64,000 bases of DNA, from sequence record NC_028927.1; one strand, given 5' to 3'. This DNA is from Escherichia phage slur02. Below are positions 34,221 to 44,990 of the stretch, piece after piece. The notes under the pieces are model-generated. The model worked only from the letters and a program-made list of their open reading frames with translations, was not told the DNA's origin and did not search any database. How positions within the stretch are numbered: position 1 is the first letter of the stretch; each line of letters opens with the position of its first letter. The position numbers and the translations under genes were made by a program.

Positions 34221-34682
34221 TCATTGAGTTTTAATTACTGCTTTAGAAGCCTTTCCTGGTAAACGACGACTGTTGATAATTGCCATCCTGCATTGAAGTG
34301 ACGGGTCTTTGAACTTCTCATTAGGCTTACAAACCGTAAATCCAAGCCAAAGATTTCCATCTGTGATTTCTAAACGTCCAGGACGATATTCAACCCCATC
34401 AATAAAATCCTCGTCAATGTCAGGACGCGGAGGCATACTCAGGAATTCATTAACTTCTAAAACATGGTCTTTTATTTTATGGAATAATTCAAAAACATAT
34501 GTCTCATCAATCTCCCGTTGAATTGCACGATCAAGAAGATGTTGAGAATATTTTAGATGAAACGATGAGACTCCTGCTGCTTTTGATGCCTCACGAATCT
34601 CATTGTTAATTTGACGAAACTCCGACTCAAAGTGACGACGAAGCTTATTTCGACGGATAAAAACTTCTGTATTGATAGTCAT
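34221..34682 (-). CDS. regB: endoribonuclease RegB
   Basis: 153 aa; T4 regB size/position; early promoter upstream. Confidence 0.85.
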   Translation of the reverse strand: MTINTEVFIRRNKLRRHFESEFRQINNEIREASKAAGVSSFHLKYSQHLLDRAIQREIDETYVFELFHKIKDHVLEVNEFLSMPPRPDIDEDFIDGVEYRPGRLEITDGNLWLGFTVCKPNEKFKDPSLQCRMAIINSRRLPGKASKAVIKTQ

Positions 34683-34742: not shown

Positions 34743-35020
34743 TATTCTTTAAATCTAATCAATTTATTCATAGACTTTGAAACTTCTGCACGAACCTCAT
34801 GTAAGTTTTTAAGCTGTTCAAGACGCTGCTCATAGTAAGCAATTTCATCTTCTTCGAGACAGTCCTGTGAATCTTCTTTAAGATAGCGTGCATAGTCCTG
34901 GAAAGCTTTACGGACTACTTCCTGGAAGTCATCAAGACTTTGAATTTTCTTAGGAGCGGCAGATACACGACGAGGGGCAGTATAATACTCATAACCAAAC
35001 CCTGCACTTAATTGAGCCAT
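34742..35020 (-). CDS. hypothetical protein (vs.3 position)
   Basis: ORF 34742-35062, start likely internal Met. Confidence 0.45.
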
Positions 35021-35322
35021 TAGTATTTTTCCTCTGGTTGGAACACAGCACGGCAAGCCCACATACTTGCTTCTTTGAGTTTCGTTTTAGCAATAGTTAA
35101 CTGATCGAGGCTTTCGGCGTAATTCTTCGCGAGTTCATCATCTTCACAGCTATCAAATGCTTCCCAGAATTCATCGTATAAAGCGTCAAAGATAAGTCCT
35201 AAACGAACTTCAGCGTCTTTGATAGCATTCACTTTACCGATTTTCTCTTCAGTATGCGGCTTATAACCTTTAATGTCTTCAATCATATTTGACTTCCTCA
35301 CCAGTACATAAATCGTATTCAA
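35020..35322 (-). CDS. hypothetical protein (vs.4 position; candidate Acb2-like nucleotide sponge)
   Basis: 100-aa ORF at the position of T4 vs.4; sequence identity to Acb2 not verified. Confidence 0.4.
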
Positions 35323-35869: not shown

Positions 35870-36196
35870 TCAATTAGAAAATAAATTTATCCAAGATTGT
35901 TCTTTAATTAAAAATGGCTCAGAATCATATGCCATTAAACTTTGGGTGATTAGTCCTTTAAAAGGTCCATCAATAAATTCCATGGTAAAATATGGAATTT
36001 TATTCATTAACTGTGCGTTAGGAGCAGTGCACAAAACTCTGCATCCTTTGAATACACCTTTTTGTAATTTGTATTGCTTGGGATAAAATTCGCTTAAAAT
36101 GTTGTTATTTGCCAAAATTTCAAAATGATTTACCAATTTATTTTTAATAGTTTTTGGCGAAAAATAGAGATATTCGAAAAGCTGTGTGTCTGTCAT
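35870..36196 (-). CDS. hypothetical protein (vs.7 position)
   Basis: ORF 35870-36250, start likely internal Met. Confidence 0.45.
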
Positions 36197-36735
36197 TATT
36201 GCATTCCGATTACGAAAAACTGTGGACGAGTAATACCACCAATGCAACATTTACTATTACAGCAGTAGTGTACAGTGTCAATATGGACGCTATAAATCTT
36301 ATCCATATCAGGAGATTTGACAGGCTCATCAATTATATACAAAATTCGCGAAAGCGATAAACCTCTGAACTTGCTTCCTTTATTACCAATAAAACTGCGT
36401 ACAGAATCAGTAAATAAACGAAAACGTATATCATCATTAGAATAACGCGAAAATTCCTTTTTAATGTTATTTGCAGAAATTTTAGCGTAAGCTGAAGTAT
36501 TAGAAAGAACAATAACTGTTCCGCCATCATACAGCCAATTAGCAGCAAAGTTAGTCACAGCAATTGATTTACCAGATTGACGTCCACCATCTATACGAAG
36601 TGTGCAGTACTGTTTAAGTAATTCTTCAAATGGCGGGATATATTCGTTTTTACAAATTTCTTCTACTCTAGCATCAGAATGGTGTGTAAAAGCATTCATC
36701 AGGGATAGATACGGGCCAGTTAAAAATGTTCTCAT
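36196..36735 (-). CDS. hypothetical protein (vs.8 position)
   Basis: ORF 36196-36792, start likely ATG 36733-36735. Confidence 0.45.
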   Translation of the reverse strand: MRTFLTGPYLSLMNAFTHHSDARVEEICKNEYIPPFEELLKQYCTLRIDGGRQSGKSIAVTNFAANWLYDGGTVIVLSNTSAYAKISANNIKKEFSRYSNDDIRFRLFTDSVRSFIGNKGSKFRGLSLSRILYIIDEPVKSPDMDKIYSVHIDTVHYCCNSKCCIGGITRPQFFVIGMQ

Positions 36736-36870
36736 ATTTTCTCTCTTAATTTTTGGGCCATTCCATGGCACATGAGTTGTCCATTCCTGCATTACCCATT
36801 ACCGCGCTTTGGCTCGACCTTATCACAGGTTGGCGGGAATACCTCAAATGAGGTCCAGGCTGTTCCCATA

Positions 36871-37344
36871 TTATTTGAACGATTTAACGTACTGAATAGA
36901 ACCTTTACTATTTACAAAGGCAATTTTACCATTTTTATTATACATGGTAGCAGTACGTTGATAACCATAAGTTTGTTTACCAGATTGATAACCAACTAAT
37001 GCGAAATTATCTTCGCCCATTTTATTCTGTTTAGCGCGAATGCGTTCATGACCATGTGCCATAAGAACCTTAGCATCACCGGTTGCAATGGATCGACGAG
37101 TTTTTTCATCTTCAACTGTATTAACAAAGTCGTCAAATGAATCAAATTTAGCATGAGATTTATTATACAGTTTTCCATCTACTGCATAATTATATCCCTG
37201 TACATCCATCTCAACTTCTGTACCATCATCCAATACAGCAGTGATTTTTTGACCTTTTTTAAATTTCAAAAGATCAGTAAAAGATTCAGCAATAATTTGA
37301 GAATTAATAGCTGCTTCAGTGATAAATTCTTGATATGTTTTCAT
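36871..37344 (-). CDS. internal-protein-like packaged protein with capsid-targeting N-terminus
   Basis: 157 aa; N-terminus MKTYQEFITEAA matches the CTS recalled for T4 internal proteins (MKTYQEFIAE); AGGAA RBS. Confidence 0.55.
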   Translation of the reverse strand: MKTYQEFITEAAINSQIIAESFTDLLKFKKGQKITAVLDDGTEVEMDVQGYNYAVDGKLYNKSHAKFDSFDDFVNTVEDEKTRRSIATGDAKVLMAHGHERIRAKQNKMGEDNFALVGYQSGKQTYGYQRTATMYNKNGKIAFVNSKGSIQYVKSFK

Positions 37345-37360
37345 ATGATTCCTTTAATTT

Positions 37361-37678
37361 TTATTCTTTAGGAAAATTTTTAGAATATGCGTCGTAAAGC
37401 TTATTTCCAATACGACGAAAAACTCTAGCTGCAAAACGATTTTCTGGGTTTTTAATCATAATTTGCATCATATAAGTACCCGCGTCTGAAAGAGCTTCTT
37501 CATAGTACCCGTTAATTTCTTTAAGAGTCCTACGTTTACCACCAGGACCATCAACAGTGATTTTCCATTTACCTGTAGAAGTGCGACTCGGCGGCTCAAC
37601 TTGTTCAATCCAAATATAACCGCCTTCTACACGTTGTCCTGCAGCAGATTCTGCAATAAATTCTTGATATGTTTTCAT
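37361..37678 (-). CDS. internal-protein-like packaged protein with capsid-targeting N-terminus
   Basis: 105 aa; N-terminus MKTYQEFIAESA; basic; directly downstream of denV. Confidence 0.55.
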   Translation of the reverse strand: MKTYQEFIAESAAGQRVEGGYIWIEQVEPPSRTSTGKWKITVDGPGGKRRTLKEINGYYEEALSDAGTYMMQIMIKNPENRFAARVFRRIGNKLYDAYSKNFPKE

Positions 37679-37687
37679 ATGTTTCCT

Positions 37688-38104
37688 TTAAATGTAAATA
37701 TTTTTACCGTAATACTTATACCAATGTGGTTTCATTAAAATTTTTTCATCAAGTCGTTGTTGACTCAATTTAATAGCTGATTTGCATGGATTATAATCAT
37801 TTTTCCATTCTACTGGAATATCGCTGATGTCAGGAACTTCAGTATCTTTTATACTGAACCCTCGTTTTAAGCATTCCGTTATAATGTCTAATTGACGCTT
37901 TCGCAAAAATTCTAACTTATCGTAAAAGAACGTAACATGACCAGAACCTAAAATAAACTCGGAAGATATTTTAAAATCTTTAACGCGCTTACCGTTTGCC
38001 ACATGCTTACGAACTATACCAAAAACACGTGGCAATTCACGGTATTCTGCGATTAAATGTTGATCAGCAAGTTCAGATACTAAAGTCAAATTAATACGAG
38101 TCAT
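37688..38104 (-). CDS. denV: endonuclease V (pyrimidine-dimer DNA glycosylase)
   Basis: 138 aa; matches T4 DenV as recalled ([17 protein letters not shown]...). Confidence 0.93.
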
Positions 38105-38121
38105 TTTATCCCTCCAAGTAA

Positions 38122-38162
38122 CTGTGAATATACTATCACAATTCTAGGAGAAAGTAAACAAC
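38122..38162 (-). promoter_or_regulatory. T4-type early promoter (denV operon)
   Basis: GTTTAC (38154-38159), spacer, TGTGATAGTATATTC. Confidence 0.55.
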
Positions 38163-38163
38163 T

Positions 38164-39132
<969 letters not shown>

Positions 39133-39151
<19 letters not shown>

Positions 39152-42233: not shown

Positions 42234-42497
42234 TTATTTCATATTATTGAAATATTCTTCTGCGATTTCGTCGTTATCATGGTAAACTTTAGAAGACAGT
42301 TTAACATAACCTTCAGCAGTGAACATGTTAATCACAACCTTTACAGTATACCACTGACCATCTTCATTACCCATTACTGCGTAAGTTTCAAACATCGGAT
42401 GGTCAGGACCGATAACTTTAATATCATTCACTGTACGACCGAAATCTTCTGAAACACATTTCATAAAGAAGTTGAACAGCTCACCGTAATTATCCAT
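42234..42497 (-). CDS. hypothetical protein (e.8 position)
   Basis: ORF 42234-42560; true start ATG 42495-42497 (MDNYGELF, GGAG RBS) downstream of an early promoter. Confidence 0.45.
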   Translation of the reverse strand: MDNYGELFNFFMKCVSEDFGRTVNDIKVIGPDHPMFETYAVMGNEDGQWYTVKVVINMFTAEGYVKLSSKVYHDNDEIAEEYFNNMK

Positions 42498-43968: not shown

Positions 43969-44044
43969 TGGTCGAGGCAGTAGGGATCGAACCTACGACC
44001 TAGGACTTAGAAGGTCCTTGCTCTTCCTTCTGAGCTATGCCCCG
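43969..44044 (-). tRNA. tRNA-Arg (anticodon UCU), CCA encoded
   Basis: manual cloverleaf: acceptor CGGGGCA/TGCCTCG, anticodon loop CTTCTAA, T-arm GTAGG-TTCGATC-CCTAC. Confidence 0.85.
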
Positions 44045-44048
44045 TAAT

Positions 44049-44124
44049 TGGGGTGACCGATGGGAGTCGAACCCATGACTACGAGAATCACAATCTCGAG
44101 TTCTACCAACTGAACTACGGCCAC
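44049..44124 (-). tRNA. tRNA-His (anticodon GUG), CCA encoded, no G-1 encoded
   Basis: manual cloverleaf: acceptor GTGGCCG/CGGTCAC, discriminator C, anticodon loop TTGTGAT; resembles E. coli tRNA-His as recalled. Confidence 0.8.
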
Positions 44125-44238
44125 ATTAATACCTACTCCAACAATCAAGATGTCTTCACACGAAATTAAGAGAAGAGTGATCAGTTCAACCCCTATAATC
44201 GCGTCAAGTAGATATTAATGTGACAGTTGTCACAAATT

Positions 44239-44313
44239 TGGCGGACGTGATAGGATTCGAACCTATAACCAATCGCTTAACAGGCGATCGCTCTACCATT
44301 GAGCTACACATCC
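44239..44313 (-). tRNA. tRNA-Asn (anticodon GUU), CCA encoded
   Basis: manual cloverleaf: acceptor GGATGTG/CACGTCC, anticodon stem ATCGC/GCGAT, loop CTGTTAA. Confidence 0.8.
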
Positions 44314-44317
44314 AAAT

Positions 44318-44404
44318 TGGTGGGGAGTGGTGGAGTCGAACCACCCGAGTCGCAATGACAATGAATTTACAGTCCACACCGCTACCTCTACGGGATAACT
44401 CCCC
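44318..44404 (-). tRNA. tRNA-Tyr (anticodon GUA), type II, CCA encoded
   Basis: acceptor GGGGAGT/ACTCCCC, anticodon loop CTGTAAA, long variable arm, T-arm GGTGG-TTCGACT-CCACC; anticodon stem has two G-U pairs. Confidence 0.7.
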
Positions 44405-44417
44405 TAATTCATAATTT

Positions 44418-44491
44418 GGTGGCCCTGGGTGGAATTGAACCACCATCTGGCGATTATGAGTCGCTTGCTTGAACCTTCCAGCTACAGGGCC
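44418..44491 (-). tRNA. tRNA with CAU anticodon (T4 tRNA-Ile-like, or Met), CCA encoded
   Basis: acceptor GGCCCTG/CAGGGCC, anticodon loop CTCATAA; occupies the Ile position of the T4 cluster order. Confidence 0.7.
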
Positions 44492-44492
44492 T

Positions 44493-44568
44493 TGGTGCTG
44501 ATTGACGGAATCGAACCGCCGACGTCCTCATTACAAGTGAGTTGCTCTACCTACTGAGCTAAATCAGC
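44493..44568 (-). tRNA. tRNA-Thr (anticodon UGU), CCA encoded
   Basis: acceptor GCTGATT/AATCAGC, anticodon loop CTTGTAA. Confidence 0.85.
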
Positions 44569-44574
44569 AAAAAC

Positions 44575-44664
44575 TGGCGGAGGCGATAGGATTTGAACCT
44601 ATGAGTCGCCGGAGCGACTGCCGGTTTTCAAGACCGGTGCATTAAACCACTCTGCCACGCCTCC
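44575..44664 (-). tRNA. tRNA-Ser (anticodon UGA), type II, CCA encoded
   Basis: acceptor GGAGGCG/CGCCTCC, anticodon stem CCGGT/ACCGG, loop CTTGAAA, long variable arm. Confidence 0.85.
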
Positions 44665-44666
44665 AG

Positions 44667-44740
44667 TCTCCATACAAGGATTTGAACCTTGGACCTCCTG
44701 ATCCCAAATCAGGCGCTCTACCAAACTGAGCTACACGGAG
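44667..44740 (-). tRNA. tRNA-Pro (anticodon UGG), CCA not encoded
   Basis: acceptor CTCCGTG/TATGGAG, anticodon loop TTTGGGA; 2 nt from tRNA-Ser. Confidence 0.8.
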
Positions 44741-44750
44741 TAAATTAAAT

Positions 44751-44824
<74 letters not shown>

Positions 44825-44829
44825 AAATT

Positions 44830-44916
44830 TGGTGCGAGAAGTGGGACTCGAACCCACAAGGAAATCATTCCGCAGCATTTTAAGTGCTGTGCCTTTACCA
44901 ATTTGACCATTCTCGC
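44830..44916 (-). tRNA. tRNA-Leu (anticodon UAA), type II, CCA encoded
   Basis: acceptor GCGAGAA/TTCTCGC, anticodon stem CAGCA/TGCTG, loop CTTAAAA, long variable arm. Confidence 0.85.
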
Positions 44917-44917
44917 G

Positions 44918-44990
44918 CTGGGAATAAAGGACTCGAACCTTTGCATCCTGGAATCAAAATCCAGTGCCTTACCAACTTGGCTAATTCCCA
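44918..44990 (-). tRNA. tRNA-Gln (anticodon UUG), CCA not encoded
   Basis: acceptor TGGGAAT/ATTCCCA, anticodon loop TTTTGAT; 1 nt from tRNA-Leu. Confidence 0.8.

Follow-up and report, generated by a model that had tools for sequence, protein, structure and literature searches.

A conserved, probably structured RNA element beside the internal-protein genes of Escherichia phage slur02

Directly downstream of denV in Escherichia phage slur02 (a 64,000-nucleotide stretch of sequence record NC_028927.1, hereafter the window) are two genes for internal proteins (Ip) – IPa, encoding 105 amino acids (aa), and IPb, encoding 157 aa – followed by a GC-rich gap of 135 nucleotides (nt) that precedes vs.8. 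Within this gap lies a conserved, strand-specific, non-coding sequence that is restricted to phages, is linked to tRNA genes outside the T4 group and shows no linkage to any protein gene. We consider it very likely that this element is a functional structured RNA; we also hold, with good confidence, that the locus as a whole is best explained as two Ip cassettes plus a structured RNA of about 115 nt. Coordinates of the features are collected in Table 1.

The gap had been described in an earlier reading of the sequence (the original prediction) as a non-coding stretch of about 135 bp that is unusually rich in GC. This is borne out: at 47% GC, against a window mean of 35% (standard deviation 4.9), it belongs to the 1.3% of 135-nt windows that are as GC-rich. 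The surrounding 2.6 kb show 100% identity to slur04 (an Escherichia phage of Tequatrovirus) and sibling phages and match 714 phage records, and the gap itself is approximately 90% identical to the DNA found directly downstream of denV in T4, that is, at the same place upstream of vs.8. A sensitive BLAST search with 146 nt matched 1033 phage records. In Roskildevirus, Jiaodavirus, Gelderlandvirus and Dhakavirus the element occupies an unannotated gap after denV or the Ip genes, and among Tevenvirinae its start coincides with the last Ip stop codon (that of denV in T4) or lies a few nucleotides from it, and it finishes with a 3' hairpin that ends 15–45 nt before the next start codon. This hairpin, formed by the last 40 nt of the element (CAUGYGCCANGGAAYGGCCC), is found only in Tevenvirinae.

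The element is built around a near-invariant 32-nt core (ACCUGUNANAAGGUCGAGC...GGUAA), segments of which include ACCUGU, GGUCGAGC and GGUAA. A 44-nt core is 86–95% identical in phages otherwise unlike T4: members of Vequintavirus (rV5-like), Pseudomonas phage PsgM04F, Klebsiella phage KpCHEMY26 and siphovirus contigs of ~46 kb. The full rV5-type version occurs in 119 records. Carriers are thus T4-like phages, rV5-like phages, a 151-kb Pseudomonas phage and ~46-kb siphoviruses, all virulent phages, of Enterobacterales and Pseudomonas. A motif scan for the core (ACCTGTNANAAGGTCGAGC-N6-10-GGTAA) recovered 41 viral contigs and 35 metagenome contigs, and a single contig from 185,579 bacterial and archaeal species. 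That one bacterial match (core only; model E 0.006), on a Dehalococcoidales contig from a metagenome-assembled genome, was treated as chance or as a mis-binned phage. The element had no match in 5,426 E. coli genomes, and on these two counts a host origin was rejected.

Outside the T4-like phages, the element keeps company with tRNA genes. At non-T4-like loci with tRNA genes it lies on the tRNA strand in all cases (16 of 16), usually within ~0.6 kb of a tRNA gene and at most ~1.2 kb away, and frequently just ahead of tRNA-Arg(UCU). Near the element in the non-T4-like phages examined, homologues of vs.8, vs.7, vs.6, denV or an Ip gene were not found, and a linked protein partner was rejected for this reason. 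In rV5-like phages two strong sigma-70-type promoters flank the element (1824–1852 and 2123–2151 in FFH2); it follows the first at a distance of ~110 nt and directly precedes the second. This layout suggests that the element belongs to a short transcription unit separate from the small open reading frame (ORF) and the tRNA cluster that lie downstream. An rV5-type element 86–96% identical to that of coliphage FFH2 is also present in three records of ~140 kb labeled 'Campylobacter phage' (MG065655, MG065662 and MG065674, for C2, A142 and A140), the host labels of which look doubtful.

A structure for the transcript was proposed by inspection of a MAFFT alignment of 19 diverse Tevenvirinae copies from phages other than Tequatrovirus. 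The predicted topology is an H-type pseudoknot (helices H0 and H1) with a three-way junction in its last loop. H0 is formed by the 5 nt at positions -9 to -5 before the core, which pair with the 5' end of the element and enclose an inner hairpin (P2), while the loop of H0 pairs with a segment downstream of H2 to give H1. H2 joins the 4 nt just before the core to the 4 nt just after GGUAA, and so closes two hairpins, P3 (ACCU-GURANA-AGGU) and P4 (GC...GC). The 32 invariant nucleotides are located in the junction strands (CGA and GGUAA) and in the hairpin loops. The 3' hairpin is nearly invariant with little covariation, and the 3' domain to which it belongs is absent from the rV5-like and Pseudomonas-type versions.

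In the MAFFT alignment 93.2% of cells pair, against 20–45% when partners are slid by one to three columns, and the covariation score is 0.188 vs 0.055, with none of 500 shuffles reaching 0.188; the pseudoknot columns read CG/AU/GC/UA and GC/CG. A covariance model (R1) was then built from this alignment, that is, without Tequatrovirus, rV5-like or Pseudomonas-type sequences, and without the pseudoknot. R1 finds the slur02 element at 36754–36868 with 77.4 bits (E about 1e-22) as its sole match in the 64 kb, and also finds T4 (86 bits) and every other class (27–50 bits).

Across 76 distinct sequences, 17 pairs show double substitutions, with 229 such cells against 66 expected. All five real pairs of H0 are among them (for example GC 47 / AU 14 / UA 9 / CG 1), and the helix takes forms as different as AAAGG/CCUUU, AAAGC/GCUUU, GGGAA/UUCCC (slur02), GGGAG/CUCCC, GGGG/CCCC and GAAUGU/ACAUUC. 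The pairs also include H1, which lies outside the model; in the other Tevenvirinae one of its pairs varies as CG 23 / UA 17 / AU 6 / GC 4 and the next as GC 38 / CG 10 / AU 3; at one pair of H2 the counts are AU 38 / UA 17 / UG 10 / CG 8 / GC 1. In Erwinia phage Cronus and one related group a pair of P2 is missing, both partners having been deleted. P3 and P4 do not vary except in second copies of the element, with one compensatory change each. The maintenance of helices by compensatory changes supports the hairpin, the pseudoknot and the three-way junction.

No match to the element was found among curated RNA families. Rfam 15 (4227 models) gave no match at E up to 10, either on a 151-nt stretch or on the 3 kb around it, and a search of the whole window at gathering thresholds returned tRNAs only, as did the rV5-type and Pseudomonas-type loci. 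ARAGORN predicted no tRNA or tmRNA at the position of the element, nor was there an Rfam tRNA-clan match. A scan of 36500–38800 found no intrinsic terminator at the element on the minus strand; the element ends ...GGCCCAAAAAUUAAG. A second copy in the window, or kinship with RNA C or RNA D of T4, was rejected: BLAST gave only a 20-nt chance match in a coding region (42362–42381) and the model one match only. Searches of the literature on vs.8 and denV, on the core sequence and on small or structured RNAs of T4 found no description of the element, and none was found in a T4 transcriptome study or in a review of post-transcriptional control in T4 (PMC3014915). The closest parallel as a class is a catalogue of 10,006 candidate structured RNAs (csRNAs) from IMG/VR (Fremin and co-workers 2023, PMC10690425), which are likewise conserved intergenic sequences with covariation in IMG/VR contigs; the main text of that paper does not mention the element, which may be an unnamed entry in its supplementary tables. 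The element looks to be a new family of phage structured RNA beside known Ip genes.

What might such an RNA do? A core that is near-invariant across groups with no common neighbouring genes, together with helices rebuilt by compensation, implies that a function at the level of RNA is under strong selection and is connected with something that the hosts have in common; its association with tRNA genes in phages outside the T4 group directs attention to RNA or tRNA biology, at present a main battleground between phages and bacterial defences. Within the functional-RNA reading, and very roughly, we tentatively favor a trans-acting species that binds protein or RNA, while giving it less than an even chance. 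The RNA would be transcribed in the early operon and, late, by read-through; the transcript would fold such that the H0 loop pairs downstream (H1) with the three-way junction (H2/P3/P4) between; and it would be cut from the polycistronic transcript, or persist within it, as a stable species or domain in the manner of the T4 tRNAs and RNAs C and D. The invariant junction and loops would then bind a factor conserved among gammaproteobacterial hosts, which could belong to RNA or tRNA metabolism, translation or RNA-targeting defence. A more specific version – a trans-acting RNA common to at least four unrelated lineages of virulent phages, either a new catalytic RNA or one that serves as decoy or sponge towards an RNA-targeting defence or a conserved host factor – is speculative and on balance unlikely. 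If true, phage T4 would have its first RNA of this sort, unnoticed for decades in a mis-annotated ORF. T4 is the most intensively studied phage. Being short, single-copy and present in a genetically tractable phage, the element is experimentally accessible.

Several observations weigh against this interpretation. A discrete RNA species is predicted here from sequence. Folding energies are unremarkable for the T4-type, JS10 and rV5-type elements (z about 0), and only the Pseudomonas-type stands out (z -2.7): the minimum free energy is thus not useful evidence in this case. The pseudoknot is statistically supported within Tevenvirinae only, its rV5-type (GCCAGCA/UGCUGGU) and Pseudomonas-type equivalents having been picked by eye, and a naive per-sequence search for pseudoknots was not significant against shuffles. 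The excess of G-U over A-C mismatches, an indicator of strand, is modest overall (37 vs 27), H2 alone showing it clearly (32 vs 7). One alignment (A4) was fitted to the structure of the model, which favors that structure, and the shuffle controls ignore phylogeny. On the protein side, packaging and injection of IPa and IPb are presumed from family membership only. Lastly, the place that the element takes up in T4-like phages is precisely a 5' untranslated region (UTR).

This last point also favors a cis-acting 5'-UTR device (a riboswitch, translational operator or mRNA stabiliser) that would control the following gene, here vs.8, in place of a free-standing RNA. In Tevenvirinae the element always fills the space from the upstream stop codon to the next ribosome-binding site (RBS), its 3' hairpin lying close to the RBS without overlapping it, and a conserved junction core with variable, compensated helices, as seen here, is typical of ligand-binding aptamers. 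Against such a device, the following gene is not constant. It is mostly vs.8, an Ip gene in KPV15 and STP4-a, and elsewhere an unrelated small ORF with its own promoter, or tRNAs, which is not the placement of a riboswitch. Moreover, in rV5-like phages the next ORF is separated from the element by a strong promoter of sigma-70 type (TTGACA-17-TGnTAAAAT), other phages carry the element among tRNA genes with no vs.8 homologue nearby, and neither a terminator nor an expression platform that sequesters the Shine-Dalgarno sequence was found. The 3' domain beside the RBS, being specific to Tevenvirinae, could be a separate cis module. Control of the following gene in cis is, in our judgment, distinctly unlikely.

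A further alternative, for which we would allow only a small chance, is that polycistronic transcripts are cut at the element, either because it is a new ribozyme that cleaves itself or because it is a signal dedicated to processing by an RNase: cleavage would part the Ip mRNA from that of vs.8 in T4-like phages and release tRNA-cluster transcripts in the others. The architecture (a pseudoknot made by a hairpin loop, a small junction, some 30 nucleotides that do not vary and helices that covary freely) is suggestive by analogy, and the position is always intercistronic or tRNA-adjacent, on the transcribed strand. There is no similarity to any ribozyme family in Rfam.

The original prediction saw the gap as consistent with a recombination junction, and a corresponding reading is that the element is a DNA-level junction or hotspot, produced or used in the rearrangement of Ip genes and denV and devoid of RNA function. 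There is a part of this idea that stands. In Tevenvirinae the element marks the constant right-hand limit of the variable Ip array and has been duplicated with the addition of cassettes: in STP4-a a further Ip gene is followed by a second, diverged copy, KPV15-type phages carry just the 3' domain as a partial second copy behind an Ip gene, and one Tevenvirinae group carries two copies in tandem, all of which is consistent with recombination at this sequence. The element may thus also serve as homology for cassette exchange. The core, invariant elsewhere, is altered in the second copies. A junction specific to the rearrangement is a different matter: T4, with its other gene order, has the homologous sequence at the same place, and the sequence is deeply conserved. 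Neither border nor duplication explains its conservation in phages that lack Ip genes, and the element is conserved in phage groups with no Ip genes or denV nearby; nor would a scar or patch of homology keep its helices by compensatory double substitutions around invariant loops. A purely DNA-level explanation is accordingly very unlikely.

Least credible is a protein-coding function, either as an N-terminal extension of vs.8 or as a small reverse-strand ORF: the ATG from which T4 RefSeq starts vs.8 (219 aa) does fall within the element, and open frames run through it, a forward one in T4-type sequences and a reverse one in 43 of 56 distinct instances from many phages, but indels of 6, 1 and 7 nt separate the slur02 gap from T4 and bring the T4 frame to a stop before vs.8, 40 of the 56 instances have stops in all three forward frames, the vs.8 family profile (phrog_1488) aligns from residue 3 and so begins at the MRTF methionine, changes in helices are paired substitutions rather than codon-like, and all neighbouring genes lie on the strand opposite to the reverse ORF. 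The broken frame, the start of the profile and the forward-frame stops together imply that the 40-codon N-terminal extension of T4 vs.8 is probably a mis-annotation, and that the sequence is conserved for a non-coding reason; the reference annotation of T4 vs.8 would be corrected accordingly. In T4 (NC_000866) the element lies at about 64818–64939 on the minus strand, its counterpart of the gap being annotated as the first 40 codons of vs.8 (NP_049732), which starts that far upstream of the start in relatives, with the extension inside the element. In slur02 (region 36736–36792) a comparable spurious ORF, of 198 aa, would start from an in-frame ATG at 36792.

Comparison with characterised RNAs gives likenesses of different kinds. 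RNA C and RNA D of T4 are non-tRNA small RNAs tied to tRNA genes, and outside the T4-like phages the element is found in or beside tRNA clusters on the same strand; in T4-like phages, by contrast, it lies ~7 kb from the tRNA cluster, between the Ip genes or denV and vs.8, and the single match of the covariance model in the window, tRNA cluster included, indicates no detectable homology to anything there. According to Uzan & Miller (2010, PMC3014915), the roles of RNA C and RNA D are unknown, and T4 has no riboswitch or trans-acting RNA with a functional characterisation. Pseudoknotted small ribozymes and riboswitches (for example pistol, twister-sister and preQ1-II-type aptamers) share with the predicted structure a hairpin loop that pairs with a strand further downstream to form a pseudoknot, a compact junction in which nucleotides are invariant, and compensated helices; there is no similarity in sequence or by covariance model, and no ligand, cleavage site or platform was identified: the likeness is one of style only. 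Like the three-way junction, the GTPase-associated centre of 23S rRNA (helices 42–44, the L11/thiostrepton site; E. coli 23S rRNA 1051–1108) has a closing helix and two hairpins, and its H44 loop (1093–1098), GUAAUA, equals the P3 loop of most copies of the element. The order of the hairpins is reversed, however, the second hairpin is unrelated and the slur02 copy reads GUGAUA; the six-base identity may easily be chance and is given little weight. Mimicry of an anticodon loop was rejected, the shared CUGUAA of the phage tRNA-Tyr anticodon loop being too short to mean anything.

The two genes that precede the element are internal-protein genes bearing a capsid-targeting sequence (CTS), as the original prediction proposed. 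Residues 1–10 (MKTYQEFIAE in IPa, MKTYQEFITE in IPb) match those of T4 IpII and IpIII, with nine of ten columns invariant among the four proteins, and the remainder does not align (23–28% identity, mostly N-terminal). The gp21 prohead protease recognises I/L-x-E at the end of the CTS, and I-x-E is present at residues 8–10 of both proteins; additional motifs of this kind are present at E54 in IPa and at E20, a possible second I-x-E site, in IPb. The predicted mature products, like those of T4 (isoelectric point (pI) 9.6 for IpII and 9.7 for IpIII), are small and basic: 95 aa, 10.8 kDa and pI 9.6 for IPa; 147 aa, 16.5 kDa and pI 9.1 for IPb. The original prediction had treated the genes as unusual, and here it erred: both are ordinary members of Ip families that already have names. 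IPb matches Pfam DUF7412 over its full length (5.7e-96) and phrog_3155 'internal virion protein' (6e-102), and is 100% identical to 'Ip4' of phage AR1, with identical copies in many phages; the family is present in 469 phage records. IPa falls into phrog_3966 (2.7e-34) and is 72% identical to Ip10 of VR7 and 95% identical to RB69ORF124c, the Ip10-like family being present in 188 phage records.

A 61-nt direct repeat (82% identity) spans the RBS and the CTS-coding 5' end of each Ip gene, and the same 5' flank also precedes ipII in T4: the repeat is thus a conserved left end of Ip genes, in keeping with their behavior as cassettes. Relative to IpI–III of T4 and the further T-even Ip families (Ip4–Ip10 and beyond), IPa and IPb share the decapeptide with its I-x-E, the small basic mature protein and the e/denV locus; they differ from IpI–III in lacking detectable similarity beyond residue 10 and in their swapped position relative to denV. 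By analogy with IpI–III, the decapeptide would target each protein to the prohead core, gp21 would remove it after Glu10, and the small basic mature proteins would be injected with the DNA. Once injected, characterised members of the Ip families block type IV restriction enzymes of the GmrSD type. At least ten Ip families have been described, and Ip1, Ip2 and Ip3 of T4 each inhibit a different GmrSD-type enzyme, inhibition having been shown for these three only (PMC12373910). An anti-restriction role for IPa and IPb is, by that analogy, a reasonable inference, and the two genes confirm the presence in this phage of Ip4 and Ip10-like cassettes of a known anti-restriction arsenal. Structural comparison added little: single-sequence AlphaFold models were poor (pLDDT, the predicted local distance difference test, 68 and 48) and no fold was assigned, a Foldseek search of these models against the PDB gave nothing significant (best E 0.29), and no sequence relative of either protein with a solved structure was found.

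On the minus strand the genes run nudE, e, denV, IPa, IPb, the 135-nt gap, vs.8, vs.7 and vs.6/grcA. That the order e-denV-IPa-IPb-gap-vs.8 departs from T4, where ipII and ipIII lie between denV and e, was part of the original prediction; comparison with T4 (e-ipIII-ipII-denV-vs.8) confirms it. To place this difference, 46 Tevenvirinae loci were surveyed for CTS-bearing ORFs. Loci with such ORFs have one to four each, highly varied in length and sequence, and the ORFs usually end no more than 40 nt from the start of the GC-rich element. The T4-type order, in which denV lies between the Ip genes and the element, was found at only three loci: denV-Ip-Ip is therefore the commoner order among the sampled Tevenvirinae loci, with slur02 representing the common arrangement and T4 the exception. 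The element itself gives a constant reference point at which the hypervariable Ip array ends on its right-hand side.

The original prediction was also right that no late promoter lies directly upstream of the Ip genes. The TATAAATA late-promoter motif does not occur in the interval from e to the Ip genes; the only two copies nearby are located upstream of e, and the same is true of T4; judged by motif, these two are the only late promoters able to feed e, denV and the Ip genes late. Between e and denV is a sequence homologous to the promoter ahead of ipIII in T4, GTTTAC ... TAGTAT, which, from the consensus, we take to be a T4 early promoter; it is likely the early promoter for denV, IPa, IPb, the RNA and vs.8. 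The scan of 36500–38800, which includes the region from e to vs.8, found no terminator-like site on the minus strand. Given the positions of these promoters and the lack of a minus-strand terminator, the likely sources of Ip mRNA are the early promoter and late read-through from the e promoters: the genes would be transcribed early from the promoter between e and denV, and late by read-through from both promoters upstream of e.

Table 1. Features of the e–vs.8 region of slur02 and of the predicted RNA element (positions in the window unless a locus is given).
Feature	Position	Strand	Remark
nudE	38696-39151	minus	
Two T4-type late promoters (TATAAATA)	38672-38679 and 38685-38692 (region 38668-38695)	minus	upstream of e
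e (T4 lysozyme)	38164-38658	minus	context only
Early-type promoter GTTTAC ... TAGTAT	38130-38159	minus	between e and denV
denV (endonuclease V)	37688-38104	minus	
61-nt direct repeat, 82% identity	copy 1 37309-37369; copy 2 37643-37703		spans RBS and CTS-coding 5' end of each Ip gene
IPa	37361-37678	minus	105-aa internal protein, Ip10-like family
IPb	36871-37344	minus	157-aa internal protein, Ip4
Gap	36736-36870		135 nt; no gene annotated there in RefSeq slur04
Conserved element, predicted structured RNA	36754-36868	minus	115 nt, 53% GC; fills space between Ip4 stop codon and vs.8 RBS
H0 (predicted)	36835-36867	minus	GGGAA 36863-36867 with UUCCC 36835-36839; encloses P2 36842-36853 and H1 5' strand CCUG 36856-36859
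Three-way junction (predicted)	36796-36833	minus	closing helix H2: CCA 36831-36833 with UGG 36796-36798
Near-invariant 32-nt core	36799-36830	minus	P3, P4, junction strands CGA and GGUAA
P3 (predicted)	36817-36830	minus	ACCU-GUGAUA-AGGU
P4 (predicted)	36804-36813	minus	GC...GC
H1 3' strand CAGG (predicted)	36786-36789	minus	pairs with CCUG 36856-36859; assigned by eye, strand misaligned in slur02 row
3' hairpin GCCAU-GGA-AUGGC (predicted)	36757-36769	minus	Tevenvirinae-specific 3' domain, just upstream of next RBS
vs.8	36196-36735	minus	179 aa, P-loop protein; most likely true start is MRTF at 36735
Second or tandem copies of the element	loci L014 5190-5304 and 5050-5169; L060 8967-9081 and 9102-9221; L109; L039 2093-2192; L038 1600-1688		

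Some observations concern the neighbouring genes. GenBank records LN881729 and MN895436 label vs.8, vs.7 (35870–36196) and vs.3 (about 35020–35300) as 'Endoribonuclease RegB'. The real regB is located at 34221–34682, and the labels look like a propagated annotation error; in RefSeq vs.8 and vs.7 are hypothetical and vs.3 is still 'Endoribonuclease RegB'. The P-loop of vs.8 is GGRQSGKS, and the protein shows weak similarity to the ATPase domain of the large terminase (phrog_2, 6e-6), with Pfam AAA_14 and Terminase_6N below threshold. Finally, ARAGORN finds 11 tRNA genes on the minus strand at 43969–44990 (Gln, Leu, Gly, Pro, Ser, Thr, Met, Tyr, Asn, His and Arg), more than the eight of T4, and the spacer of 114 nt between tRNA-Asn and tRNA-His is promoter-like.

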